In this document: positions 1,977 through 26,078 of the stretch, one piece after another
Position numbering within the stretch: position 1 is the stretch's first letter
Layout: each line of letters opens with the position of its first letter
Virus record (IMG/VR): IMGVR_UViG_3300045988_156243
DNA from: a virus
Lineage: Duplodnaviria; Heunggongvirae; Uroviricota; Caudoviricetes
Strand: one strand, 5' to 3'
Length of the DNA stretch: 48,634 nucleotides
Translations under genes and position numbers: made by a program
Notes under the pieces: model-generated
Database searches by the model: none
The model's input: the letters and a program-made list of their open reading frames with translations, nothing else
What the model was told of the DNA's origin: nothing

Positions 1977-2467
1977 TCCTCAAGCCTCCCAAGTGCTGAA
2001 CGCCTGGCGTTGCTAATCTCCTTATGAATCAGCTCGATATCGCTGGAATCTTTATTCTTAAGCTCCAGCACGGTAATCGCATCACGAACCTCTGAAACGG
2101 TTACGTGTGAGTGTTTCCAGCGAGCAATGAATCGCGGACCGCGTAGATTGCAACGCTCCGCAGGCATCCCCAGCTCAGAGAAAACCGCTTTCAGCCTTGA
2201 TAAGCAGTTAACAGGGAGATTCCCTTTGATCTTGTTCTGCCGAACCGATGTGCCATCGCTACGCTGGCGCTGACGTTCGGCAAAATCTGCCGCCCATTGC
2301 TGGACGTTAATCCGGCCTTCCGAATACGCCACCAGCAGCGTCAGGTTATCCGCACGAGGGAATCTCTCGAAGCGATACCAGGCACCAATCAGTGATGACG
2401 TAAAGCCAAACTTTCTGGCAACACCAATTTGGCCTCCATTTTCGTCAACCCACTCCTGAAAGGTCAT
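1973..2467 (-). CDS. Cro/YdaS-like HTH early regulator with C-terminal extension
   Basis: 164 aa; N-terminus MTFQEWVDENGGQIGVARKFG matches Cro/YdaS-type HTH starts; divergent from the CI-like gene across an operator-rich spacer. Confidence 0.5.
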   Translation of the reverse strand: MTFQEWVDENGGQIGVARKFGFTSSLIGAWYRFERFPRADNLTLLVAYSEGRINVQQWAADFAERQRQRSDGTSVRQNKIKGNLPVNCLSRLKAVFSELGMPAERCNLRGPRFIARWKHSHVTVSEVRDAITVLELKNKDSSDIELIHKEISNARRSALGRLEE

Positions 2468-2485
2468 TTAACGAACTCCAGTTAA

Positions 2486-2501
2486 AACCACGATATGTGG
2501 T
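2486..2501. promoter_or_regulatory. Operator-like palindrome aaccacgatatgtggt
   Basis: AACCAC-N5-GTGGT inverted repeat in the cI/cro-like intergenic region. Confidence 0.45.
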
Positions 2502-2506
2502 ATTAA

Positions 2507-2522
2507 AACCACATATCGTGAG
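2507..2522. promoter_or_regulatory. Operator-like site aaccacatatcgtgag (degenerate half-site)
   Basis: Second copy 5 bp from the first; one half-site deviates. Confidence 0.35.
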
Positions 2523-2588
2523 TTTTTCAATGGGCGAAACAAAAAATAACCTTCTATTTGTGGTCCACCTCTCGTCTTACCATGTGAA

Positions 2589-2604
2589 AACCACTAAATG
2601 TGGT
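2589..2604. promoter_or_regulatory. Operator-like palindrome aaccactaaatgtggt
   Basis: Third copy, about 38 bp upstream of the CI-like start, followed by tataaa. Confidence 0.45.
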
Positions 2605-2641
2605 AATGTATAAATAACCCACCATTCACGATTGATGAGAC

Positions 2642-3298
2642 ATGAAAAGCAACGACGAGAACATCAAGAAAGAAATAGGTCTGCGCATTCAGACTCTACG
2701 GAAACAATCCGGCATGACTGCCGGAGATCTCCAGCAAGTCACTGGAATAGGCTTAAGCACCTTGCAGAACTATGAGGCCGGATTAAGACAACCATCTATA
2801 CCTGCCATCAAGAAAATCGCGCACGCCCTGAAAGCATCAGCGCCTTATATCGCGTGCTTAACAGATAACCCGTTCCCACCCCAGAATACTAACGCTCCTG
2901 TTATTCCTGGGCTTGTAGCTATAAAAAATGACATAGCATCGCACGCCGGAGAAAAGCCAGTGCTGGCGATAGAACAGGAGATTCTACGAAGCAAGAACAT
3001 CAACCCATCGTCTCTGTCAGTTCTCCAGAGCAACGATGAGTTAATGTCACCAACAATATCCCCTGGCTCCCAAGTCCTGATTAATACAGACGATACAGAG
3101 ATTCATGAGGGGATCTATGCCCTTGAAGACAGAAATGGCCTGGTTGTTTTGAGGCACTGTAGAGTCATACCGGGTGACAATGCTGTTATGCTGTCAACCG
3201 AAAGGGATGCTGAAATGAACACTAAGCATCTGAATAACGAGGAATTTAAGCGTTATAAAGTTCTTGGCCGCGTAGTTAGTGTTGTCAACTGGTTATGA
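2642..3298 (+). CDS. CI-like repressor (HTH_XRE N-domain plus S24 LexA-like C-domain)
   Basis: 218 aa; N-terminal HTH (GMTAGDLQQVTGIGLSTLQNYE); C-terminal MSPTISPGSQVLINTD and KVLGRVV resemble the S24 Ser/Lys autocleavage motifs. Confidence 0.85.
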   Translation: MKSNDENIKKEIGLRIQTLRKQSGMTAGDLQQVTGIGLSTLQNYEAGLRQPSIPAIKKIAHALKASAPYIACLTDNPFPPQNTNAPVIPGLVAIKNDIASHAGEKPVLAIEQEILRSKNINPSSLSVLQSNDELMSPTISPGSQVLINTDDTEIHEGIYALEDRNGLVVLRHCRVIPGDNAVMLSTERDAEMNTKHLNNEEFKRYKVLGRVVSVVNWL

Positions 3299-3796: not shown

Positions 3797-3893
3797 TATA
3801 GATTTATATAATTATATAAAACGCTTTTCATCCGCCAAAAAGTTGGTTATGCTTACCTCGTTCTATAAATATAGATTTATAGAATTATATAAC
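3797..3893. repeat. AT-rich boxes upstream of parA (tatagatttata at 3797-3808 and 3870-3881); candidate centromere/operator
   Basis: Two ~24-bp direct repeats of tatagatttata(t/g)aattatata; a third copy at 4586-4597. Confidence 0.45.
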
Positions 3894-3900
3894 CAAACAC

Positions 3901-4569
3901 ATGGAGTCTCGACAAATGACTATCTCTGTAGGTATTTTCAACGGAAAAGGCGGCGTAACCAAATCAACAATTGCCCGTGCTTTAGCAGTTGCTTATGCAA
4001 AGGCCGGCTGGAATGTATGCCTGATCGATATGGATGTGCTTAACGGAACGGTAACGCGTTGGGTACAACGCAGAATGGCCAACAATATCGAACCTGCAAT
4101 CGCGGCACAGCCGTGCGGCACACCATCACAAGTCCAGAAAATCATCGAATCAGAAGTATACGACTTGGTTATCGTCGATGGCGGTGCCTACGCATCTGAA
4201 TCAGTACCGAAGCTCTCTGAATTTCTGGATATGGTTATTTTGCCAACCAGATTCTCTACCGATGACCTGGAAACCACCGTTAACACAGCTCATGGCATCG
4301 TTAAAAAGGGTGTGCCAATCAAGAAAATTTGCATGGTGTTCTCAGGCGCGGCTGAAAACGAAGCCGACTACATTGAAGCCCAAGAGTACCTGGCTAATAC
4401 GCCATACTTTGTTGTCGATAAGTACATTCCCCACAAGCCAGCTCTAAGCAAAGCTCAGGATAAGGGCTTAAGCCTCATTGAATGCTCATACGTTGCGCCA
4501 CGCAAAAAGGCAGACGACGTTATTCAGGGGATTATCAACCAGCTTGAGGCTCTGACTACTGCCGCGTAA
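3901..4569 (+). CDS. parA: ParA-family partition ATPase (small, ParF-like)
   Basis: 222 aa; deviant Walker A GKGGVTKST near the N-terminus; no N-terminal HTH extension. Confidence 0.85.
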   Translation: MESRQMTISVGIFNGKGGVTKSTIARALAVAYAKAGWNVCLIDMDVLNGTVTRWVQRRMANNIEPAIAAQPCGTPSQVQKIIESEVYDLVIVDGGAYASESVPKLSEFLDMVILPTRFSTDDLETTVNTAHGIVKKGVPIKKICMVFSGAAENEADYIEAQEYLANTPYFVVDKYIPHKPALSKAQDKGLSLIECSYVAPRKKADDVIQGIINQLEALTTAA

Positions 4570-4570
4570 T

Positions 4571-4600
4571 ATATAATTATAGTTTTATAGATTTATATAA
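4571..4600. repeat. AT-rich box copy (tatagatttata at 4586-4597) between parA and the downstream gene
   Basis: Same 12-mer as upstream of parA. Confidence 0.4.
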
Positions 4601-4612
4601 GAGGGGATACAC

Positions 4613-4861
4613 ATGGCCGCACCATCAAAACCACCAAAGAAGAACAGCAAAGGCGTACCGCCATCGATCGAACAACCGCAAGTTTTCGACCCGACTGAAA
4701 CGCCAGCCAGAACCAAATCAGGTGGGGCACAAATGGCGTTTAACGTCGACCCTGAATTTAAACGCGAGTACAAAACGTTCGCCAGCTCAATGGATATGTC
4801 ATTGAAAGAAGTGCTGACAAAATCTTTTGAGTTACTCAAGGCTCAATACAACCAGAAGTAA
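4613..4861 (+). CDS. ParG-like small partition/centromere-binding protein (putative RHH)
   Basis: 82 aa; Pro/Lys-rich flexible N-terminus and compact C-terminus; immediately downstream of the ParF-like ATPase with gagggga RBS. Confidence 0.5.
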   Translation: MAAPSKPPKKNSKGVPPSIEQPQVFDPTETPARTKSGGAQMAFNVDPEFKREYKTFASSMDMSLKEVLTKSFELLKAQYNQK

Positions 4862-4923
4862 GAGAAGGTGACGGCCTCCAGCGCCAACTGTTGGCCGTCG
4901 CGACACAACAAGGGGAATTTGTT

Positions 4924-5073
4924 ATGTCCGAGCAACAATATACACGGTTACTGAAAACTCGTCTAACCGACCTCAAACGGCTGCAAGCTGGTCGCTTATT
5001 TGCCCTGCTATCCACCAGGCCAGAATGGGTACGTGAAGCAGTTCTAAAAGGCTTAATGCGCTCCAGCGTTTAA
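4924..5073 (+). CDS. Hypothetical small protein
   Basis: 49 aa from the internal ATG (ORF-track start is TTG at 4891); aagggg RBS. Confidence 0.3.
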   Translation: MSEQQYTRLLKTRLTDLKRLQAGRLFALLSTRPEWVREAVLKGLMRSSV

Positions 5074-5083
5074 ATTCAACCAT

Positions 5084-5105
5084 AAAAAAGGCCCCCGAAG
5101 GGGCC
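5084..5105. terminator. Intrinsic terminator, stronger on the minus strand
   Basis: Hairpin ggcccc-cgaa-ggggcc preceded by aaaaaa (a U-tract on the minus strand). Confidence 0.6.
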
Positions 5106-5111
5106 TAATCG

Positions 5112-5233
5112 CTACTTGCTGCTAATGTTTATCGTCACATTCAGAGCGTTATCAGTAATCTTCCAACCCTCCCCATGTGGCGTAAACAAAGCTCCAGTAA
5201 CAACGATAAAAATACACATACAGTATTTTTTCA
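5112..5233 (-). CDS. Small hydrophobic peptide, candidate type I toxin
   Basis: 40 codons from ATG at 5233 (MKKYCMCIFIVVTGALF...); ORF-track version is TTG-extended; its 5' UTR carries the complement of the 20-mer at 5299-5318. Confidence 0.3.
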
Positions 5234-5298
5234 TTGTGTGGCCCTTACAGGCCGTTTCACGGCATCCCCACCGACGAAAATGACGCGAGAGCAAGCAC

Positions 5299-5318
5299 GC
5301 TGTTTGTGCCTGCGTGGT
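5299..5318. repeat. 20-mer box copy 1 (gctgtttgtgcctgcgtggt)
   Basis: 19/20 identical to 5549-5568. Confidence 0.8.
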
Positions 5319-5548
5319 ACGGCAAGTGGATAATCCTTTCCTGAAAGTCAGTGCCCGGGTGCGAATCGGCGGAAAGGCCCCAAGCCATATTACACGTCAT
5401 ACCCTTCATAATGAAGGAATAAAAAACGCTTTTATTACATAAGATTACACGTAAATAAGTTAAAAACCTTCATTTTGCATGAGCTAATGAGCTAAATTTT
5501 TTTATATGAATAGTGGACTATTCACCTCAGTTGGGTAAGAATGTAGTT

Positions 5549-5568
5549 GCTGTTTGTGCTTGCGTGGT
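5549..5568. repeat. 20-mer box copy 2 (gctgtttgtgcttgcgtggt)
   Basis: Direct repeat of 5299-5318 at the predicted 5' end of a plus-strand sRNA. Confidence 0.8.
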
Positions 5569-5651
5569 TGTATTAGTACAACGACGTTATGCTGAAAGGA
5601 CCGCGAATCCGATCAGCACGAAAGAACCGTCCTCAAAAGGACGGTTTTTTT
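5549..5651 (+). ncRNA. Candidate ~100-nt sRNA (antitoxin-like), ending in an intrinsic terminator
   Basis: Possible promoter TGGACT-16 bp-TAAGAAT just upstream; terminator ccgtcc-tcaaaa-ggacgg plus T7 at 5627-5651; no credible ORF. Confidence 0.4.
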
Positions 5652-6205
5652 GTTTCTCCCCCTTCCTTCCCAAATGATTCAAATGTTAATGAGAGAGAAT
5701 CATTTGATATGTTCGATTTAGCGCCGTTATCGACCCAATTTCTGTATGCTTCATCACAACAGTACCTTACAGCAGTTGGAGTAACAGGGATGCCGCCCCC
5801 AAATGAGAATCCCATTGAGCTAATGCTAACTCTTTCGAATGGCCTATTTCTCAATGCTTCAAACCCCTTGCTATTAAAGTAACGCAGCATCAGAGGTAAA
5901 AGGTTATCCTCGTCCTGACTGATTGTTCCAGGGAAAAAGTAGTAACCATAACGGTTAAATTCGGGAATAAGATTTTCTACCAATGACATGAAATTCACTG
6001 GAGTAATATTAAGGGCTGTGAAAGCACCAAAAAGGGCGTCAACTGTTAATACAGACTGCCCGTTCTCTATCTTTGTCCATGCGTTTGGTGTTTTTCCAGC
6101 AGCTTGAGCCAGCACTCCTTGATGCACACCTCTTTCTAGCCTAAGTTCTTTTATGATCATTAGGTGAATTGTTGAAAAACATGAGTTTTTTGACTGTTCA
6201 ATCAT
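5633..6205 (-). CDS. HTH_XRE-family transcriptional regulator with C-terminal domain
   Basis: 190 aa; N-terminal HTH (ELRLERGVHQGVLAQAAGKTPNAWTKIENGQ); divergent from the antirepressor operon. Confidence 0.7.
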   Translation of the reverse strand: MIEQSKNSCFSTIHLMIIKELRLERGVHQGVLAQAAGKTPNAWTKIENGQSVLTVDALFGAFTALNITPVNFMSLVENLIPEFNRYGYYFFPGTISQDEDNLLPLMLRYFNSKGFEALRNRPFERVSISSMGFSFGGGIPVTPTAVRYCCDEAYRNWVDNGAKSNISNDSLSLTFESFGKEGGETKKPSF

Positions 6206-6339
6206 TTTTTATCCCCATACTGAATTTTTTCTTGTTCCCGACTTTAACAAAATTCCACAACTCAGGACTGATTGATTCCTTACAGGAACTATACATTCCC
6301 ATTTTAGCATATCAAGAAAATTAAAAGCCCCGCATTCAA

Positions 6340-6356
6340 ACCCACACTATGTGGTT
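6340..6356. promoter_or_regulatory. Operator-like palindrome acccacactatgtggtt upstream of the antirepressor operon
   Basis: AACCAC-N5-GTGGT pattern 23 bp upstream of a TTGACA hexamer at 6380-6385. Confidence 0.4.
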
Positions 6357-6409
6357 GTCTCTGTTAAAATCCCGCCGTATTGACATAAATGCGCCATTGG
6401 TGGACACTT

Positions 6410-6488
6410 TCCGAGCCGTAGCAAAATCTACGGCCGGGATTAGCCTCCTGAATAACACGATGGCGCATACCGCGTTAGCGGTTTTTTT
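6410..6488 (+). ncRNA. Candidate structured leader/sRNA upstream of the antirepressor operon
   Basis: Hairpin ccgtag-caaaat-ctacgg and ccgc-gtta-gcgg followed by T7 (6470-6488); no ORF. Confidence 0.25.
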
Positions 6489-6650
6489 ATGCGTAGAGCA
6501 CTGTTACGCCCAAATTATGGTGGGTCGTACAGGGGCGGAGAAATCCGCGCCGGTTCGTCATTGTGTCCGGTAAGGCTAACCCTGTACGGCTCACCACCAT
6601 TTGATTAGCCTCGAATGGCGGTGATAGTTCCATATACTGGAGATATCACA

Positions 6651-6842
6651 ATGACAAACCTACCCCATGACTATTACGTCAACCTCGTAAAGATCCTTCT
6701 CAAGAAAGCCTCATACGCCGATAAATTCCGCCTGGCTGAAATCATCGAGCGCGAAGCTATGCGCATCGCCAGCAACGATAACGCTGTTTCTGACGCAAAA
6801 ATCTCCCTCGTAACCAAAGTAGTTATGGGAGGTGCAAAATGA
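6651..6842 (+). CDS. Small ORF translationally coupled to the antirepressor (icd-like position)
   Basis: 63 aa from ATG at 6651 with ggag RBS; stop overlaps the antirepressor start (ATGA). Confidence 0.35.
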   Translation: MTNLPHDYYVNLVKILLKKASYADKFRLAEIIEREAMRIASNDNAVSDAKISLVTKVVMGGAK

Positions 6843-7990
6843 AAACGCTTCCGACCGTTAACACCCTACAGCCTATCCTGCATAATCAGATTCCAGTAAT
6901 CACAACTGAGCTACTCGCCCGCCTTTATGGAACAGAAGCAATCCGTATACAGCAAAATCACCATGAAAATAAAACTCGGTTCATTGAGGGGAAGCACTTC
7001 TTTAAAGCTGTTGGTGATGAACTCAAAAATTTGCGACTAGTTTTAAACGAGTCACAAAATGAGGTGCCAATTTCCCCCAAAACTCGCTCTCTCATCCTCT
7101 GGACAGAACGCGGGGCTGCACGTCACGCCAAAATGCTTGAAACTAACCAAGCGTGGGATGTGTTCGAACGGCTGGAAGACTGCTATTTCAACCAGAACGC
7201 GCAAACGGCCGCGACCGTAACCGTCTCGCCAAACAATGCTCGTGAGGTTGTCGATACGCTCAACGCCAAACCGATGTTTTACATTAAGGTGTGCAACAAC
7301 GAGCCACTCACAACCTCAGCCGATGTTGCCCAGGCATTCAGCACCACAAACAATTCCATCGTTATGGCCATCGATGCGTTACGCATTCCTCGCACAGCTG
7401 CGGCACGTCATTTCTTTAAAGAGCAACGACCGCTGGAAGGAAGCGACCGCGAAATAACAATCTATCGCATGACAAAAGACGGATTTACCTTGCTCATGGA
7501 AAGTATCGACGGTCCAGGCGTGAAAGATATCAAGCTGGCCTACATTGAAGCCTTTAACGCTATCAGCAGCGTGTTAAAAACACAGTACGAGCGTGATCTG
7601 GCTAAACGACTGTACCAGGAAAAAACGATTATCCGCGCGGCAACAGAGCATAATCGGCTATTAACGGAACCGAACTACAGGAAGGAACTAATCAAGGAGT
7701 TTGACAAGGCAACAGGGAAAACCAAAGCGGCGCTAAATCTGCCAGCAATGACTCAGGAAAATGTGATATCAGCCTTACTTCTTGATCTGCTCAGAAACGC
7801 CAGAGCACTTATCAGCTTTGACGAAAACCTGAATCCTCAGCTCAAGCTACTACCACCGACAGGCAAAGTAGTCGACCAAGCTGATCACAACAGCATACTC
7901 AGCGTTCTGGATGCAAACCTGCCAGCCAGGACACTACAGGATCTGATAAAAACATGTGCTGATAAGCTGGCACAGAAAAGCAGACCATAA
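6839..7990 (+). CDS. Antirepressor (KilA-N/ORF6N-type N-domain plus Rha/Ant-type domain)
   Basis: 383 aa; N-terminal ITTELLARLYGTEAIRIQQNHHENKTRFIEGKHFF and central PMFYIKVCNNEPLTTSADVAQAF resemble phage antirepressor domains. Confidence 0.8.
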   Translation: MKTLPTVNTLQPILHNQIPVITTELLARLYGTEAIRIQQNHHENKTRFIEGKHFFKAVGDELKNLRLVLNESQNEVPISPKTRSLILWTERGAARHAKMLETNQAWDVFERLEDCYFNQNAQTAATVTVSPNNAREVVDTLNAKPMFYIKVCNNEPLTTSADVAQAFSTTNNSIVMAIDALRIPRTAAARHFFKEQRPLEGSDREITIYRMTKDGFTLLMESIDGPGVKDIKLAYIEAFNAISSVLKTQYERDLAKRLYQEKTIIRAATEHNRLLTEPNYRKELIKEFDKATGKTKAALNLPAMTQENVISALLLDLLRNARALISFDENLNPQLKLLPPTGKVVDQADHNSILSVLDANLPARTLQDLIKTCADKLAQKSRP

Positions 7991-7996
7991 CTACAA

Positions 7997-8020
7997 GGGG
8001 CTACGGCCCCTTACTCTTTT
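7997..8020 (+). terminator. Intrinsic terminator after the antirepressor
   Basis: Hairpin ggggc-tacg-gcccc followed by a T-rich run. Confidence 0.6.
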
Positions 8021-15917: not shown

Positions 15918-17987
15918 TTAAATACTTCCCGCGTTATACCAAGTCCCATTAATGCAATACTGAATTGGCCTTGCCTGAGTTGTATCAATTAATTCGTCAC
16001 GGTTCCCGTTAACTGAACCCGTAACGACATAACCTGACCTGTCAGACCAGCCGGGGCCATTCCATGTCTGAACAGATGACAGACCGCCAAGGCGAATACC
16101 TGTAATAAACCTTGAGTTACATTCTGCCTGAGTATATGCACCAACATCTCCCGCTGAAGGTTTTCGTGTCGTGGTATAGAAATCTGACCAACCTAATTCA
16201 AACCCATAACCATCACGAGCCGACCTGTAGGAAATGCCACCATTTTTATAATTCACACGGAATTGTACGGCAGGACAGCTACCAGCATTTATATTAAAGT
16301 GAAGAATTAATGCAGATGCACCACCAATCAGGGCGTTATATGCACCACTATCCCAATTCCATCCAACGGATGTATCACCATTAACAGTATTACCTGTTTG
16401 TCGGAGTGCAAATGCATTGACATTTTTGGCACTAATTGAAATATCGCTAGAACCATCAAAACCAACTCCAGCAATTTTTCGTGCTGTTTTCAGCTTTGTT
16501 GCAGTAGCGGCATTGCCGGACAGTTCCCCAGAAAGGCCACCGCTGAATGTTTGTCGATTAGTCCAGGTATTCGCTGTACTGAGTAACGGTATTTTCTCCC
16601 CGCTTGTGCCGAGTTCTCGTAAACCGAGGTATTCGATAACGGCGGCAACGGTCGATTTCGCAAGAATATCCCGCCCTACTTTTGTCAGAGTTGCCAGGCT
16701 GGCGACATCATTCCCCGTAAAATACGGAAACCTGTCTGCCGCAGTAGCAAGCCCGGCCAGCGCCGTCAGGGTGGCATCTTTCGGTTGCTTACCCGCAAGC
16801 GCGTTAGTCATGGTGGTCGCAAAATTCGGGTCGTTGCCCAACGCCGCAGCCAGCTCGTTCAGCGTATTCAGTGCGTCAGGCGACGAGTCCACGAGGGCAG
16901 CGATCGCAGCCATAACATAAGCCGTGCTTGCGATCTGAGTATTGTTAGTACCTTTTGGCGCAGTTGGTGTTGTTGGTGTTCCGGTCAGCGCCGGACTGTT
17001 CAGGGGCGCTTTCTTGTTCGTTTCATCCATTACCACCTTTACCGCTTTCGATGTCGCGGCCAGTGTTTCAGACGTGCTGTTGGTTGCACTACTGAGCTGA
17101 GTGATTCCCCTTACTGTCAGTGAAGCTACAGGCACATTTGTTATCTGCTCCCACGAATGCGTGTGATTGGACGGAGCCTTTCCGGCCGCAAGATCATACG
17201 CTGCCTTAACAGCCTTTGGTGTTGCGGCCAGCGTTTCCGAATCACTGTTAGTGGCGCTACTGAGCTGAACAATCCCTTTTCGCGCCGTGGTAGCGTCCTG
17301 TGCGGTGTATTTGCCATTAGCCAGGTCATATGCTGCCTTAACAGCCTTAGGCGTCGCAGCAAGCGTTTCAGACGAGCTATTGGTGGCGCTGCTAAGTTGA
17401 ACAAAGCCTTTTGAGGTTAAAGTTGCATCAGGATGATTACGTGATTGCTCATGTTTCACAATGGCTTGCTTAAGCCGCTTTGCTGAAACAGCAAGGGAAT
17501 CATCTGTACCTGCATCAATTTCTTGTTCATTAGCAAACCTTGCCACCCCAACAACAGTTTCGGTCGCGGGAGGATTAATAAACTCAATATCACCAAATGT
17601 AATATTTTTAGTATCAAGAGTTTTAATTGCTATATCACTTGATATTAAAGCGATAGTAGATGATGCTTTATTTATTATTGCTTGTTCTTGTGAGTATACA
17701 GCAAACAACGTACCCTTATTCGTATACAATCCTATTGTATGGACAACATACTCATCTTTACTATCATCCTTCGCTGTTACATGAATTGTATCAGGGGAAA
17801 CAACTTTGCCACCTATTGTGGTAAGTCGTTTTATTTCGTTTGTTATATTTGTTTGTGAAGTTGACGTGACATAATATCTACTACCTAAACCAACAGAAAC
17901 AATCTCAACTTTATTTGTTCCTGTTTTGTTGGCATTAACCAGCTCCTGACGCCCGGCGTCAGTCATCGTAAATAATAATTTACTCAC
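15918..17987 (-). CDS. Tail fibre protein (P2 gpH / Mu S-like), GTG start
   Basis: 689 aa; N-terminus MSKLLFTMTDAGRQ resembles P2 H; repeated ...SSATNS.SETLAATPKAVKAAYDLA... units; contains the gix-like site at 16614-16639. Confidence 0.85.
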   Translation of the reverse strand: MSKLLFTMTDAGRQELVNANKTGTNKVEIVSVGLGSRYYVTSTSQTNITNEIKRLTTIGGKVVSPDTIHVTAKDDSKDEYVVHTIGLYTNKGTLFAVYSQEQAIINKASSTIALISSDIAIKTLDTKNITFGDIEFINPPATETVVGVARFANEQEIDAGTDDSLAVSAKRLKQAIVKHEQSRNHPDATLTSKGFVQLSSATNSSSETLAATPKAVKAAYDLANGKYTAQDATTARKGIVQLSSATNSDSETLAATPKAVKAAYDLAAGKAPSNHTHSWEQITNVPVASLTVRGITQLSSATNSTSETLAATSKAVKVVMDETNKKAPLNSPALTGTPTTPTAPKGTNNTQIASTAYVMAAIAALVDSSPDALNTLNELAAALGNDPNFATTMTNALAGKQPKDATLTALAGLATAADRFPYFTGNDVASLATLTKVGRDILAKSTVAAVIEYLGLRELGTSGEKIPLLSTANTWTNRQTFSGGLSGELSGNAATATKLKTARKIAGVGFDGSSDISISAKNVNAFALRQTGNTVNGDTSVGWNWDSGAYNALIGGASALILHFNINAGSCPAVQFRVNYKNGGISYRSARDGYGFELGWSDFYTTTRKPSAGDVGAYTQAECNSRFITGIRLGGLSSVQTWNGPGWSDRSGYVVTGSVNGNRDELIDTTQARPIQYCINGTWYNAGSI
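16614..16639. repeat. Recombination site (gix-like) inside the tail fibre gene
   Basis: ttctcgtaaaccgaggtattcgataa; inverted relative to 13563-13590, sharing the CCTCGGTTT core. Confidence 0.7.
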
Positions 17988-20033: not shown

Positions 20034-20497
20034 AATAATTTACCTAACGCACTTCTAGTTTTTGACTCTATATTGCCAGCAATATCAACTAATGCTTCTT
20101 TCAGAGAGGTCTGTCCGACTTCCTGTAATTTAATGCCGACGATAATCACTCGTGGATTCCCAGTTGGACCGAAATAAGTCCATGATTCCTCTATATCTGT
20201 AATTATAAAATTACCAAAATACTGAATACCAATTACAACAGGATTTACTTCCTGAATTGATTGCATTGTCCTAAGTAATGAAAGCGCAGCCAATGGAACA
20301 ATGCCAAGTGTTGTATCCAACCGCATATTAAAACTAACTTCATCCAGATCTGGACCTATATCCTCCAGAACAGGTTTAAGCCCAATAACATCATGGCGCG
20401 CAACACGACGCTTTGACGTCCTTTTAAAATTGTTGAACGTATTCACCACTATTGATGAGGCAACAAAAGGCATTGTACCAAGCATACCCACAATCAT
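20030..20497 (-). CDS. Hypothetical baseplate-module protein
   Basis: 155 aa between the V-like and W-like genes. Confidence 0.4.
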   Translation of the reverse strand: MIVGMLGTMPFVASSIVVNTFNNFKRTSKRRVARHDVIGLKPVLEDIGPDLDEVSFNMRLDTTLGIVPLAALSLLRTMQSIQEVNPVVIGIQYFGNFIITDIEESWTYFGPTGNPRVIIVGIKLQEVGQTSLKEALVDIAGNIESKTRSALGKLL

Positions 20498-21114
20498 GCC
20501 TGAGCCTCCGTTGTCGGAGCGTATTCCCCCTGAGCTGTGTGATGGTGGCCTTTAGATTTAATCCCATCAACATCTATATCACCACCAACAACCTTAACAT
20601 CCCCAGAAATTGTAGCTGCAACACCTCCAGCAGAAGATCCTTTCATTCCACCTTTGAAGGTTAGTAATCCTTCAACTGTAGCATTTCCGGTAATGATGGT
20701 TTCTGGAGCATCAATAGTTACGGTTCCTGTAGCCTTAACGGTTACATCTCCGACAGCATCAACAAGGAGTAAATTAGATTCTCTGTCTACCTCAATACGA
20801 GTTCCGTTATTAAATCTAATGACGCGTTTATTAACCGTATTAGATGGCGGCTTCTGTGTTTCATCATAAAAACTACCAAGAATAAAACCTTGTTGCGGCC
20901 CTGCGGGATGAAAGATACACAAAACTTGCTCACCAATATCTGGCATCCAGTAATCAGCATTCTTATCCGTATTTTTCACAATAACTGATAACTTTGCCGA
21001 AGTGACGTTATCCTGATCATCGAAAGTAACTCTTGCTGTAACATCACCATCATCAATATCAGAAACAACGCCAACTCTTATAGTCTGACGTAATAATGTT
21101 TCTAAATCATTCAT
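20494..21114 (-). CDS. Baseplate spike/assembly protein V-like
   Basis: 206 aa; Gly-rich beta-helix-like C-terminus (KVVGGDIDVDG). Confidence 0.7.
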   Translation of the reverse strand: MNDLETLLRQTIRVGVVSDIDDGDVTARVTFDDQDNVTSAKLSVIVKNTDKNADYWMPDIGEQVLCIFHPAGPQQGFILGSFYDETQKPPSNTVNKRVIRFNNGTRIEVDRESNLLLVDAVGDVTVKATGTVTIDAPETIITGNATVEGLLTFKGGMKGSSAGGVAATISGDVKVVGGDIDVDGIKSKGHHHTAQGEYAPTTEAQA

Positions 21115-22118: not shown

Positions 22119-22326
22119 TATTGCGTCTCCACGGAGGCAAATTGTTTACTGATATTGGCATAACCGGAGCATCAGGAACTTTAAGAATAATTCCCGCAGA
22201 AAAAAGCACCGTAAAGCGGTGCTCAGTATTAGCATCAATAAGAAGATAAGACAGGTACTCATTACCATACAACTTTAACGCGATACTATCCCATGAGTCC
22301 CCTTGAACCGTTCTATAATCATCCAA
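22108..22326 (-). CDS. Small LysM-like tail protein (P2 gpX-like), TTG start
   Basis: 72 aa; RTVQGDSWDSIALKLYG resembles the gpX LysM start. Confidence 0.55.
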   Translation of the reverse strand: MDDYRTVQGDSWDSIALKLYGNEYLSYLLIDANTEHRFTVLFSAGIILKVPDAPVMPISVNNLPPWRRNSVT

Positions 22327-25111
22327 AACTTAATCTCCGTTGTTGGAACATATGAGCACTCAATTTCTTCTCAAAATCAGAATATCCCGCATCTAATGCT
22401 CTTTTAGCTGCCGCCTCAGTTTCCTTTGGTGAACCAGCCGGAAGATTGATTACAGGTGAATAGGTTATTCCACCAGTCACAGCGTTAACGTTCTGGCGAA
22501 GTCCAGAACTCCCGGCAGCAGAGATCCCGTGAGGTGATAAATTTGATTGCCCGAACTGGGTTGCGATTGCATTCTGTAAGCTGTTATTTCTGCTAACACC
22601 AGATGCCAGAGTAGTCATTATTGCACCACCTGACTTTGTTAGCTGTGAGAATGGACCTTTTTTCGCATCAGAGAACGGTAAATACTCACGAACAGAAGAA
22701 AAAACGCCTTTCACCTCATTGATTAGAGCATTTGCTTTTGATTTTATCCCTGTGATTAACGTCTCAATTATTTTTGCGCCTGACTCACTCCAGTTTATTC
22801 CAGACAAATAAGCTGTTACAGATTGAAATGCTCTTATAAAGAGTCCAACGGGTGAAAAACGCATAAAAACAGATACCAGTGTATCTATGATTTTCTTTCC
22901 TGTTTCGCTCCAGTTAATGCCAGAAAGGTAATTTGTTGTAAGTTTAAGTGCTTTAATTAAGAACGGAAGCGGAGACATCCATTTAAAAGCACTAATTAAT
23001 GTACTGTAAATTCTTACTCCTGCCGAACTCCAGTTTATGTTGGAAAGATAATCCCATGCTTTACCAAACATAGATATAATCCATCCATTGAGGTCAAAGT
23101 TTAAGATAAAGTTTTTTATAGCCTCAAATGATTTAACTGTATATTCCTTAACAGAAGGCCAAACTCTGACAGCATAATCTCTGATCTTATCCCAGTTCTG
23201 ATAGAGCAATATTCCTGCGGCAACCAGCGCAGATATAGCCATCTGAATCCACCCGAAGGGTGTTAGCTTTGTCGCTACAGATAAAGCCAGCATAGCTACC
23301 CTACACGCTATAACCACACTTTTCATGGTTAGAAACGCACCTGCCGCCATCACAATCTGAGACACAAAATTGGGGTTGTTAGCTACAAATTCACTAATTT
23401 TTGTAATCAGCGGAACCAAAACACTAAGCGCGGCATTCAAAGCTGGTTGCAAGGCCTGACCAAAACTTAATGATGCATTGCTAGCCTGAATACGTAATTG
23501 TTTCAATCGCTCCGCATTGTCTTTCGTTATGTTGGCAAAATCGCGGTCAATAACAGCACTTCCAGCCCCAAGAGATGTTGCTTTGATTCTCTGGTATTCC
23601 TTCCAGTTTTGAATCATCGGACGAACAAAGTTCTGAACCTGCATATCGCCAAATAGCTCACCAAGTAACTTCTGATCTCCGTTCTTAGTCATTTTCATGA
23701 CAGAATGCATTGCAGCTTCGAATGGATTCTTCCCTTTTTTCTGCGCTGTTGTGACAATTTTATATAAATCTACACCGAAATTTTTCTTTGCTTTTTTTAG
23801 TGTTTCAGGGGAAAGTATTTTCGCCAAAAAGTTGTTCATATTATTAGCAGCCTCATCCGAAGTTGCAGCACCTTTGCGAGCTATCTGCAAAGCTGCCCCC
23901 ATCGTCGCGGCGGCTTCTTTACCTCCCATTTTTAATGCCTGGAACTGAGCACCAAGCACAGGAAGATTTTTGGCCATATCTTTAAATTCAAAGTTTCCCT
24001 CTTTCCCTGCCTGAACCAGAATCCCCATTGCAGACTTCATTTGAGATGGATCAATCTTCAATGAGTCACTTAATGTAAATGATGCTTTCGAGACATCGAG
24101 GATATCAGAGCCAGTAGCTGTAGCTGTTCGCCCAATAGTTAGTAGATTCGCCTGAGCCTCTTTATAATCCTGCCCAGCAGCGACAAGAAAACCCTGAGCG
24201 GCCTGAATATCAGATGCAAACTGGTTGGTGGCCGTTCCAGTAACAAGCATCGCCTGCCCCATCGCCTGAACTTCTTCCGGCTTCATATCTGCCGTAAGAC
24301 CAATCATTTTGTTTTCACGATTGAAATTTGCTGCATTGTTAGCAGCAGCAAATGCACCAGCCGCTACAGCACCAGTTTGTAATCCTGACCTTACAAGTTG
24401 ACTCTTTGCCTCACCAAGATGCTCTCGCTTCAATTCACGCTGCCTTTCCAACGCGCGGTTTAACTCCTCCTGAGCACGTTTTACTGCAAGAACATTTTTC
24501 CGTGCTTCAGCCAACGCATTTTTATAGCTGTTAATTTTATCAATACGTTGTTTTTCTAATGCCCGGTTAAGTTCCTCCTGCTGTTTTTTCACTTGCTGAA
24601 CATTTGCTCTGGCTAAAGCCAAAGCCGTTCTGTAGCGGTTAACCTGCTCAACGCTACGGGCCTGAGCCTCACGATTACGATCAATGCTTGCTTTAAGCTC
24701 TTTCTCTCTTGAGGCTAAAGCTCTGGCAGATGTATCAGCTCCCTGATACGCAGACTTTAAAGCGGCCAGTTCTTCACGCTGAGAACGTAGTGATGCTCGT
24801 AAATTTGATGAATGTGTTTTTGCCTTCTCAAAGTCACGAAGCATCGCTCTGGTTGGATTGGCCGTGTTTTTTATTTGCTTCTGTAACTCTTCAACGCGAG
24901 CAGCAGCTTTATGATATTCGAGGGCAGTCTGTCCAACCTTTACTTTTACAGATTGTAGCTTTTGAATTTCCCCATGTTCTTTCGTTAATCCAGCAAGCTC
25001 TGCATTTAATTTAGCAACAGCCTGATTAGCTGTAGTAAAACTTTTGGGGAGAGAGGCGGCAACTTTGCCGCCAATTTCAAAAGCCAGCTTAAAGTTCTTA
25101 TTGCTGGCCAT
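22319..25111 (-). CDS. Tail tape measure protein
   Basis: 930 aa; long coiled-coil N-terminal half, hydrophobic central segment; downstream of the E/E' chaperones. Confidence 0.85.
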   Translation of the reverse strand: MASNKNFKLAFEIGGKVAASLPKSFTTANQAVAKLNAELAGLTKEHGEIQKLQSVKVKVGQTALEYHKAAARVEELQKQIKNTANPTRAMLRDFEKAKTHSSNLRASLRSQREELAALKSAYQGADTSARALASREKELKASIDRNREAQARSVEQVNRYRTALALARANVQQVKKQQEELNRALEKQRIDKINSYKNALAEARKNVLAVKRAQEELNRALERQRELKREHLGEAKSQLVRSGLQTGAVAAGAFAAANNAANFNRENKMIGLTADMKPEEVQAMGQAMLVTGTATNQFASDIQAAQGFLVAAGQDYKEAQANLLTIGRTATATGSDILDVSKASFTLSDSLKIDPSQMKSAMGILVQAGKEGNFEFKDMAKNLPVLGAQFQALKMGGKEAAATMGAALQIARKGAATSDEAANNMNNFLAKILSPETLKKAKKNFGVDLYKIVTTAQKKGKNPFEAAMHSVMKMTKNGDQKLLGELFGDMQVQNFVRPMIQNWKEYQRIKATSLGAGSAVIDRDFANITKDNAERLKQLRIQASNASLSFGQALQPALNAALSVLVPLITKISEFVANNPNFVSQIVMAAGAFLTMKSVVIACRVAMLALSVATKLTPFGWIQMAISALVAAGILLYQNWDKIRDYAVRVWPSVKEYTVKSFEAIKNFILNFDLNGWIISMFGKAWDYLSNINWSSAGVRIYSTLISAFKWMSPLPFLIKALKLTTNYLSGINWSETGKKIIDTLVSVFMRFSPVGLFIRAFQSVTAYLSGINWSESGAKIIETLITGIKSKANALINEVKGVFSSVREYLPFSDAKKGPFSQLTKSGGAIMTTLASGVSRNNSLQNAIATQFGQSNLSPHGISAAGSSGLRQNVNAVTGGITYSPVINLPAGSPKETEAAAKRALDAGYSDFEKKLSAHMFQQRRLSFG

Positions 25112-25116
25112 TAGTA

Positions 25117-25547
25117 TTAATCCTCATTAAACACGTCAATCCATGCGACGATTCGCCTCAACCGAAGCGAAAGCCAGTAGGATATAGGTGTTGATTGAGA
25201 TGATTGAGATAGAGAACTCGCGGCCCTCATTATTTGCTTATCAATAGGTTTTTGCTCATCAAAACCTACGAGAGCAAAAAATTCTGTACCTTTTGACAAA
25301 CTTTAACAAAGTCTTTCGCTGGTAATCCATTCAGATACTCTATTGGACGACCAATACAGCGAGCAGCCAAGGCTGCATGGACTTTATTATCAAGTGATGT
25401 TTGAACTGAAACATGCCCTTGAGATTGCAGTAAGTCCGATACCTCTAAAATATCACTGCCTTTTAGGTTGTCTAAATCAAGGTTGAGTTCAGTCACCGGC
25501 TCAAAGTCTTCAAAACGATATTCTTTACTTAATTTAACGGTTTCCAT
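25117..25547 (-). CDS. Tail assembly chaperones gpE and frameshifted gpE+E' (programmed -1 frameshift)
   Basis: E ORF 25266-25547 and overlapping E' ORF 25117-25299 in the -1 frame; slippery heptamer T_TTT_TTG at 25275-25281 (minus strand). Confidence 0.65.
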
Positions 25548-25556
25548 TTTGTCACC

Positions 25557-26078
25557 TTATAAACCTAAATCATCACGAACGCTTTTTAATATATCTTCAC
25601 CATCAAAGATACAAATAAAGTTCAATTTATCAATTTCCAGGACTTCTTTTCCATCAATAAATAATTTGATATAGAGAACTTCAAATTCATTCTCTGAATC
25701 AGTAGCCTTTGCCACCTGTAGCGAACCTAAATCCAGTTTTTTAGGGTTTAGCTTCATTGAAGCCCGAATAGGAACCGTTTTATATTTTCCTGTTCCTGCA
25801 TCATAAACCTGCTGGCTACCGCGAAAATCTACCTGATGAGATGAGGATAGAAATAATTTTGTACCAGCAGAGGTCAGAGTTCGCCATTTAAGAGAGACAG
25901 TCATTGGTTTGAAATGCCCCAGCGTTCCGCTCTCAAGCTCTCCAGCGATACCTGCACCACTAACAGTTTCTGTCATCATCTCAATTGATGGCAGCTTTGC
26001 GTCAGCAACACCGATAATACGGTTTCCCTCACCGTATACTGTAAAGTTAATAAGTCTCTCAGGAATTTGATTGCTCAA
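25557..26078 (-). CDS. Tail tube protein (P2 FII-like), TTG start
   Basis: 173 aa; strong RBS aggagg before the TTG; follows the sheath gene. Confidence 0.8.
   Translation of the reverse strand: MSNQIPERLINFTVYGEGNRIIGVADAKLPSIEMMTETVSGAGIAGELESGTLGHFKPMTVSLKWRTLTSAGTKLFLSSSHQVDFRGSQQVYDAGTGKYKTVPIRASMKLNPKKLDLGSLQVAKATDSENEFEVLYIKLFIDGKEVLEIDKLNFICIFDGEDILKSVRDDLGL

Follow-up and report, generated by a model that had tools for sequence, protein, structure and literature searches.

A probable timPR-type toxin-antitoxin module with its own pairing sequence on an enterobacterial phage-plasmid

The virus record IMGVR_UViG_3300045988_156243 (Caudoviricetes), a stretch of 48,634 nucleotides (nt) that is here called the window, contains a 20-mer (GCTGTTTGTGCCTGCGTGGT, 5299-5318) that is repeated on the same strand as GCTGTTTGTGCTTGCGTGGT (5549-5568) with 19 of 20 positions identical and a single C-to-T change. 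The first copy lies upstream of a small open reading frame (ORF) on the minus strand and the second at the predicted 5' end of a plus-strand transcript. A sequence-only reading of the window had noticed this repeat, compared the arrangement to a type I toxin-antitoxin (TA) pair, and suggested that the module may be undescribed. Which system, then, does this locus belong to, and what might such a system do on a phage-plasmid? We conclude that the locus is very probably a divergent, unannotated member of the enterobacterial timPR (ryfA/TimR) type I TA family, with a molecular mechanism like that of Salmonella. It fits each sequence-testable defining feature of timPR except the curated score threshold for TimP. 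The family itself is already known; the new part is location and lineage, namely a timPR that is mobile, carried by a phage-plasmid and equipped with a seed sequence of its own.

The RNA ryfA, first described as non-coding, is the timP toxin mRNA, which codes for an inner-membrane toxin of 38 amino acids (aa), and the divergently encoded small RNA (sRNA) TimR represses timP by an 18-nt pairing of its 5' end with the 5' untranslated region (5'UTR) of timP; both the toxicity of TimP to the inner membrane and the translation block by TimR were shown for Salmonella (PMC7667032). A 7-bp pseudoknot between the stem-loops SL1 and SL3 is indispensable if timP is to be translated in Salmonella, where TimR binds SL2 (PMC11228461), and a second long-range pairing, of site 2 with site 4, opens SL4 for translation (PMC13000454). 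The three studies describe timPR at chromosomal loci only.

Both RNAs of this family are recognisable in the window. The minus strand from 5382 to 5084 matches the Rfam family ryfA (RF00126) over its full length (model positions 1-296 of 296) with 131 bits (E 2e-34; the gathering score is 80), in a scan that covered positions 4000-8000 and reported matches at E<=1. The same scan reported no TimR family in that interval. We built a covariance model, R1, from an alignment of nine TimR sequences taken from chromosomal loci only, and searched the whole window with it. Its only significant match (5549-5651, plus strand; 55.5 bits, E 6.3e-11, model positions 1-99 of 99, the next best reaching 14 bits) has its first base exactly on the G of the second 20-mer and stops at the terminator which the sequence-only reading had named; this terminator is indeed present as a stem (5625-5633 with 5638-5646) followed by a T-run to 5651. 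The predicted sRNA start is the G of GCTGTTTG. The window and the chromosomal copies have the TimR core (GCUGAAAGGACCGCGAAUCCGAUCAGCA in the window, GCUGGAAAGGCCGCGAACC.GAC.AGCA in the chromosomes) and the hairpin layout in common. On the toxin side, the chromosomal timP of Escherichia coli, annotated by the Prokaryotic Genome Annotation Pipeline (PGAP) as "small toxic inner membrane protein TimP", shows about 70% identity to positions 5182-5380 of the window.

The encoded peptide is more divergent. The small hydrophobic ORF is present as described, with 40 codons and a hydrophobic N-terminus (MKKYCMCIFIVVTGALFTPHGEGWKITDNALNVTINISSK; 5234..5112), its ATG lying at 5234-5232 and not at 5233. 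The peptide aligns with the NCBIfam family NF040796 (toxic_TimP) over positions 1-40 of 40 (E 7e-5, 23 bits), and is 30-38% identical to chromosomal TimPs of Escherichia, Shigella, Citrobacter, Kluyvera, Superficieibacter and Pseudocitrobacter, the conserved part being the N-terminal hydrophobic M-K-x-x-Y/C-x-C-I-x-x-I-V segment. The NCBIfam scan gave only TimP and a PHROG scan gave no match. A peptide that scores below the TimP threshold, lacks a PHROG match and is unannotated in the public records examined could be taken to represent an undescribed type I TA family that resembles tisB/istR-1, shoB/ohsC and zor/orz in layout only. We regard this as barely credible, given the full-length ryfA match above threshold, the E-value of 6.3e-11 obtained with a TimR model of purely chromosomal origin, and the placing of pairing site, pseudoknot and ORF, which is homologous to that in timPR. 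The earlier suggestion that the module is undescribed hence does not hold: the mRNA is a ryfA, the sRNA a TimR homologue and the peptide probably a divergent TimP. With about 5084-5655, the complete module is a little longer than the interval 5112-5651 first assigned to it.

The repeat that drew attention to the locus could be confirmed. The 20-mer has only two copies in the 48.6-kb window at up to three mismatches, and none of 100 dinucleotide shuffles gave two matches; a pair with at most one mismatch within 400 nt likewise did not occur in 100 shuffles of the window. The C/T difference between the copies becomes a G-U pair in a duplex of the minus-strand mRNA with the plus-strand sRNA, as the sequence-only reading had pointed out, and if G-U is allowed the uninterrupted complementarity extends to 21 nt (5298-5318 with 5548-5568, two G-U pairs). 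The 8-pair stem of SL2, in which the mRNA box lies, is fully paired in the window (8/8). RNAduplex on long sRNA flanks gave sprawling duplexes, and a search for the longest contiguous helix was used instead. In most chromosomal timPR loci examined this helix is 17-21 nt long at +63..+83 of the mRNA, with the ATG at +146/147. The helix of the window lies at +65..+85 and its ATG at about +147/+149, and for Salmonella the published site in SL2 has 18 nt and the ORF starts at +145 (PMC7667032, PMC11228461).

The two boxes also change together across three sequence types of phage-plasmids. Box 1 and box 2 read GCTGTTTGTGCC and GCTGTTTGTGCT in the window type, ACCGCTTGTGCT and GCCGCTTGTGCT in the pHN68 type, and GCTGCTTGTGCTTGCAT and GCTGCTTGTGCTTGCGT in the FDAARGOS type. 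All three differences between box 1 and box 2 are transitions in the direction that yields G-U and not A-C. In all 20 related phage-plasmid or viral loci that could be examined the ORF of 39-40 aa is intact (one has an in-frame 3-nt deletion) and a helix of 18-21 nt is kept. Co-variation of two copies would also be expected of sites bound by one protein, and the 20-mers, being direct repeats close to a partition cassette and a region with divergent promoters, might be taken to act as DNA, as iterons, partition sites or operator sites, and not by RNA-RNA pairing. This we consider highly improbable. There are just two copies in 48.6 kb, both within conserved transcribed RNAs and at the positions of the validated TimR-timP duplex (PMC7667032); the copy differences all preserve G-U pairing, and in most of the chromosomal homologues examined the two RNAs are complementary at this position too, though by another sequence.

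The secondary structure of the 5'UTR provides a further line of evidence. Across 16 sequences, the SL1-SL3 pseudoknot helix is 100% paired in terms of sequence potential, and three of its seven pairs are altered on both sides. Two of these double-sided changes (U-A to C-G or U-G, and G-C to A-U) split the phage-plasmid from the chromosomal copies. SL4 has 5 of 5 pairs, with one double change from U-A to C-G relative to the chromosomal copies, and is present in the minimum free energy (MFE) structure of the mRNA, as are SL2 and SL3 (fold z-score -3.4; that of the sRNA is -7.3). Taken together, the four helices have 94% of cells paired, as against 33-48% when their 3' partners are slid by 1-3 columns. 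Site 3 lies where the Salmonella pseudoknot has its SL3 part (G103, G106; PMC11228461), and site 2 is homologous to C57-C58-G59 of Salmonella timP (PMC13000454). A pairing of site 1 with site 2, the "inactive" one of PMC13000454, looks weak in the window when judged by eye. Homology and covariation thus bear out the type I layout that had been proposed, with a divergent sRNA whose 5' end pairs with the toxin 5'UTR.

Several observations weigh against this interpretation. The peptide's 23 bits compare with a curated NCBIfam cut-off of 45, and the 131 bits of the ryfA match lie well under the 227-317 bits of the chromosomal copies; because of this distance the function could have drifted. The MFE fold of the sRNA alone pairs the 5' seed with downstream sequence, unlike the consensus fold of chromosomal TimR, which leaves the seed single-stranded. 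Site 2 and site 4 form only 5 of 6 pairs, with one pair lost and the changes one-sided. Finally, a consensus promoter scan called neither the timP nor the TimR promoter, both of which are weak consensus matches.

Such low scores could mean that the locus is a timPR relative which is no longer a TA pair, its RNA of about 300 nt being a non-coding regulator of the RyfA type or the cassette a neutral passenger. The original description of ryfA as a non-coding sRNA, the stress-resistance and virulence phenotypes of RyfA in uropathogenic and avian pathogenic E. coli (PMC8205139, PMC13188913) and the absence of a growth phenotype upon chromosomal timR deletion (PMC7667032) fit this possibility. We nevertheless find it improbable: the ORF is intact in 20 of 20 loci, one of them with the in-frame deletion, the pseudoknot and SL4, which control translation, are kept via double-sided changes, antitoxin seed and target covary, and the strongly divergent spacer lies between transcribed parts that are conserved.

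If the locus is indeed a timPR, its mode of action can be outlined from the steps shown in Salmonella (PMC7667032, PMC11228461, PMC13000454), which we infer for the window from conserved sequence, structure, position and covariation. An mRNA of about 299 nt would be transcribed leftwards from about 5381 to its intrinsic terminator and would be structured without processing. Its 5'UTR would fold into SL1-SL4, with the Shine-Dalgarno sequence held in SL4, and translation of the 40-aa TimP would need both the SL1-SL3 pseudoknot and the pairing of site 2 with site 4 that opens SL4. The divergent TimR-like RNA of about 103 nt would pair via its first 20-21 nt with SL2, disturbing SL2 and the pseudoknot and thereby blocking translation initiation. 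When TimR falls, TimP would be made and would insert into the inner membrane via its signal-like N-terminus, making the membrane leaky. The positions of these features are given in Table 1.

Table 1. Predicted features of the timPR-like module in the window (mRNA positions count from the presumed 5' end of the toxin mRNA)
Feature	Position	Strand	Remarks
timP-like toxin mRNA (ryfA family), about 299 nt	5084..5382	-	Rfam RF00126 match; 5' end probably G at 5380-5381
TimP-like ORF	5112..5234	-	40 aa + stop
Box 1, predicted TimR-binding site	5298..5318	-	in 5'UTR stem-loop SL2; 21-nt helix with sRNA 5' end
Pseudoknot site 1	5347..5353	-	CACUGAC, in SL1, mRNA nt 30-36; 7/7 paired with site 3
Pseudoknot site 3	5269..5275	-	GUCGGUG, top of SL3, mRNA nt 108-114; pairs with site 1
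Site 2	5319..5324	-	UGCCGU, linker, mRNA nt 59-64; able to pair with 5' flank of SL4 (site 4)
Site 4 (5250-5255) and stem-loop SL4 (5240-5253)	5240..5255	-	AAGGG Shine-Dalgarno inside SL4, 9-13 nt before AUG
timP mRNA intrinsic terminator	5089..5106	-	7-pair stem (6 G-C pairs), then T-run; Rfam match ends there
Putative timP promoter	5387..5415	-	-10 TAATAT (5392..5387), weak -35 TTCATT (5415..5410), 17-nt spacer; read from sequence
TimR-like sRNA, about 103 nt	5549..5651	+	5' seed box 2 (5548/5549-5568), two internal hairpins, terminator (5625-5651)
Putative TimR promoter	5514..5542	+	-35 TGGACT (5514-5519), 17-nt spacer, -10 AAGAAT (5537-5542), 6-7 nt before sRNA start

The alignment of 13 plasmid variants shows two transcribed regions that are nearly invariant. 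The spacer with both promoters (5383-5548) falls into three very different types with indels and is far more divergent than the flanking timP and TimR transcribed regions; TGGAC and GTAA(G)AAT form conserved islands in it. These islands belong to the putative TimR promoter, which has 8 of 12 consensus matches and shares its geometry with the chromosomal TimR promoters. The timP promoter we count as inferred, since the consensus scan did not call it. A perfect palindrome, CCTTCATAATGAAGG (5403-5417; CCTTCAT-A-ATGAAGG), overlaps its putative -35 and has a half-site 60 nt away at 5467-5473; two of the three spacer types retain it, and a regulator could bind there.

At both ends of the module there are convergent reading frames. 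The timP mRNA terminator is shared, back to back, with a convergent 60-aa ORF at 4891-5073. As for the claim that the sRNA carries no ORF, none is contained within the transcript, but an ATG-started frame (5589-5882) begins inside it and crosses the terminator. A gene of the XRE/helix-turn-helix type (5633-6205, minus strand) converges on TimR, with its stop codon within the TimR terminator stem; some variants have it, in others a different sequence takes its place, and the break point shortly after the terminator T-run (after TTTTTTTGTTTCT) marks a module boundary. Further Rfam matches, to RNAI at 5555-5652 (28 bits against a gathering score of 47) and to Phe_leader, Atu_C8 and PhrS, are below their gathering scores and overlap the ryfA and TimR features, and we dismissed them.

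The phage-plasmid setting that had been suspected is correct. Over the query, the window shares 99.5% identity with a virion-forming phage of 49 kb, Yersinia phage vB_YpM_41, and also with circular plasmids of about 48 kb in E. coli, E. albertii and E. fergusonii. Among the plasmids is that of E. coli ATCC 25922 (NZ_CP009073.1), in which the module occupies 20300-20907. A near-full-length copy of the module is present in 70 of 5,426 complete E. coli genomes. Matches at 80% identity or more occur in about 72 records, a figure close to the 73 matching places on plasmids, while the 2,016 matches of chromosomal type all fall into the band of 60-80% identity. Among viral contigs of IMG/VR, the TimR core of the window was found in eight, collected by the window's own 28-mer; seven of these also have ryfA and a match to the TimR model, the eighth ending within TimR, and isrK and C4 are present in all eight.

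The chromosomal timPR loci came from a genome scan with the pattern GCTGRAAAGGMCGCGAAYC, in which they stood among many chance matches in unrelated phyla, and distant homologues are under-sampled in a comparison set picked by this TimR-core pattern. The pattern misses the window's own TimR core (GCTGAAAGGACC...), and its four viral matches without ryfA are chance matches. One locus, of Salmonella arizonae, was left out of the comparisons, its ryfA match being shortened to 272 nt and overlapping the TimR core.

Public annotation has passed over the module: we found it annotated in none of the public records examined. The RefSeq/PGAP annotation of the plasmid NZ_CP158145.1, which is 99.5% identical, is empty across the timPR region (locus positions 2312-3084), likely because the peptide scores under the NCBIfam cut-off for TimP. 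In the literature searched, no paper was found that pairs phage-plasmids with timP, TimR or ryfA.

The question arises whether the phage-plasmid system and a chromosomal timPR can be expected to interact. Duplex energies were computed with RNAduplex for the 5'UTR against the first 30 nt of the sRNA. The cognate pairs reach -41.1 kcal/mol in the window and -40.4 kcal/mol in E. coli K-12. The cross pairs are much weaker, with -20.4 kcal/mol for the window's TimR with K-12 timP, -21.3 kcal/mol for K-12 TimR (copy B) with the window's timP, and -27.7 kcal/mol for the K-12 TimR-like copy A with the window's timP. Because of this predicted weakness, we do not expect the host's chromosomal TimR to counter the toxin of the phage-plasmid, and the energies suggest that the phage-plasmid system is insulated from the host timPR by a private specificity. 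Between timP and sseA, at about 1000-1500 of the K-12 chromosomal locus (NZ_CP097883.1 1229986-1231782), there are two TimR-like sRNA copies with different seeds and also an incomplete second 5' end of timP. Rfam labels the corresponding region IS128 RNA in the related loci of Shigella flexneri and E. ruysiae.

The position of the module may indicate its biological role. It sits between a parA partition cassette and a P1-like c4/ant immunity region, on a phage-plasmid of about 48 kb and myovirus type, with parA (3901-4569) 0.5 kb upstream. We see post-segregational stabilisation of the phage-plasmid as the likeliest role, albeit a tentative one, because of the proximity of parA, the reported greater stability of timP mRNA compared to TimR (PMC7667032) and the predicted private specificity. 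It is possible, and we put it forward with somewhat more reserve, that the phage-plasmid copy is an active addiction module whose TimR/timP seed has diverged so that the host chromosomal TimR cannot neutralise it. However, Salmonella deleted for its chromosomal timR grew without inhibition when expression was native (PMC7667032), and killing after plasmid loss is therefore not assured.

A functional timPR might alternatively have a phage-related role: it could exclude other phages or act against them by abortive infection, or it could add to membrane damage while the element itself goes through its lytic cycle. The element forms virions, having been isolated as vB_YpM_41, and the module adjoins the c4/ant immunity switch; type I toxins such as hok/sok exclude T4, as cited in PMC13000454; and a regulator could bind the palindrome over the putative timP -35. 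The neighbourhood of parA and the private specificity fit addiction at least equally well, and we consider a phage-related role somewhat unlikely, though a serious alternative.

Other features lie in these two neighbourhoods or elsewhere in the element. On the immunity side, tandem RNA elements at 6402-6601 (plus strand) comprise c4-a1b1 (36.7 bits, below threshold), isrK (68 bits) and the C4 antisense RNA (70.8 bits). This trio lies directly upstream of a 75-aa ORF (6615-6842) and an ORF6N/Ant-type antirepressor (6839-7990), which is the layout of a P1-style immI immunity region. On the partition side, an AT-rich direct repeat of about 23 nt, ATAGATTTATA(T/G)AATTATATAA, occurs at 3797-3820 and 3870-3893, just upstream of parA, and may be a partition operator or centromere. 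A further repeat pair of at least 20 nt is found at 17194/17326. The annotation of phage vB_YpM_41 lists a HigB2-like toxin and, beside tail-fibre-sized genes, a Hin-type DNA invertase (22226-22573, 25198-25752), which would amount to a second TA system and a host-range segment that can invert.

When TimP is produced in nature has been stated to be unknown (PMC7667032), and the main value of the phage-plasmid copy lies in opening the natural role of timPR to tests. It is mobile, lies beside a partition cassette, is conserved in about 70 complete E. coli plasmids and in viral contigs of IMG/VR, and is apparently insulated from the chromosomal antitoxin; a role in plasmid stabilisation or in phage biology can thereby be tested directly. 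Its natural compensatory variants support the published pseudoknot model, and current annotation misses it. If the copy should prove to be an active addiction module with a diverged seed, this would be the first clear biological function for the timPR family and a natural example of orthogonal specificities coexisting in one cell.

Among known systems, timP/TimR (ryfA/STnc2070; RyfA1/RyfB1 in Shigella), which occurs in Salmonella, E. coli and further Enterobacterales, is the closest. Both have an RF00126 mRNA of about 300 nt with an ORF of 38-41 aa that starts at about +145/+149 and has a signal-like hydrophobic N-terminus, a divergent sRNA of about 100 nt with an intrinsic terminator, a 17-21-nt pairing of the sRNA 5' end with SL2, the SL1-SL3 pseudoknot, the pairing of sites 2 and 4, and a Shine-Dalgarno sequence inside SL4. 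Unlike the chromosomal systems, which are located between sseA and sseB, the module of the window resides on a phage-plasmid. Its peptide identity is low (30-38%) and below the NCBIfam cut-off, its ryfA score is 131 as opposed to 227-317 bits, and the distance from the mRNA 5' end to the TimR core is 209 nt instead of 116-123 nt. It also has other seed and target sequences, with weak cross-pairing predicted with K-12, and compensatory substitutions in the pseudoknot and SL4.

With hok/sok of plasmid R1 the module shares a plasmid location, a small membrane toxin and the proposed role in plasmid stabilisation. The comparison also takes in a toxin mRNA that is stable and structured, an antisense RNA that is labile and a ribosome-binding site concealed by mRNA folding. 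There is no kinship in sequence or RNA family, the Rfam scan of 4000-8000 giving no hok/sok match; moreover, Sok and its target overlap in cis, and hok depends on the mok leader ORF as well as on 3' processing, neither of which timP is reported to need. The likeness drawn by the sequence-only reading to tisB/istR-1, shoB/ohsC and zorO/orzO (zor/orz) holds for the layout, a divergent sRNA with a short pairing (about 18-20 nt) to the toxin 5'UTR. It does not extend to RNA or peptide homology, as none of their Rfam families matched the region in the same scan, and while the mRNAs of those three systems are activated by 5' processing and ribosome standby, timP relies on a pseudoknot switch.

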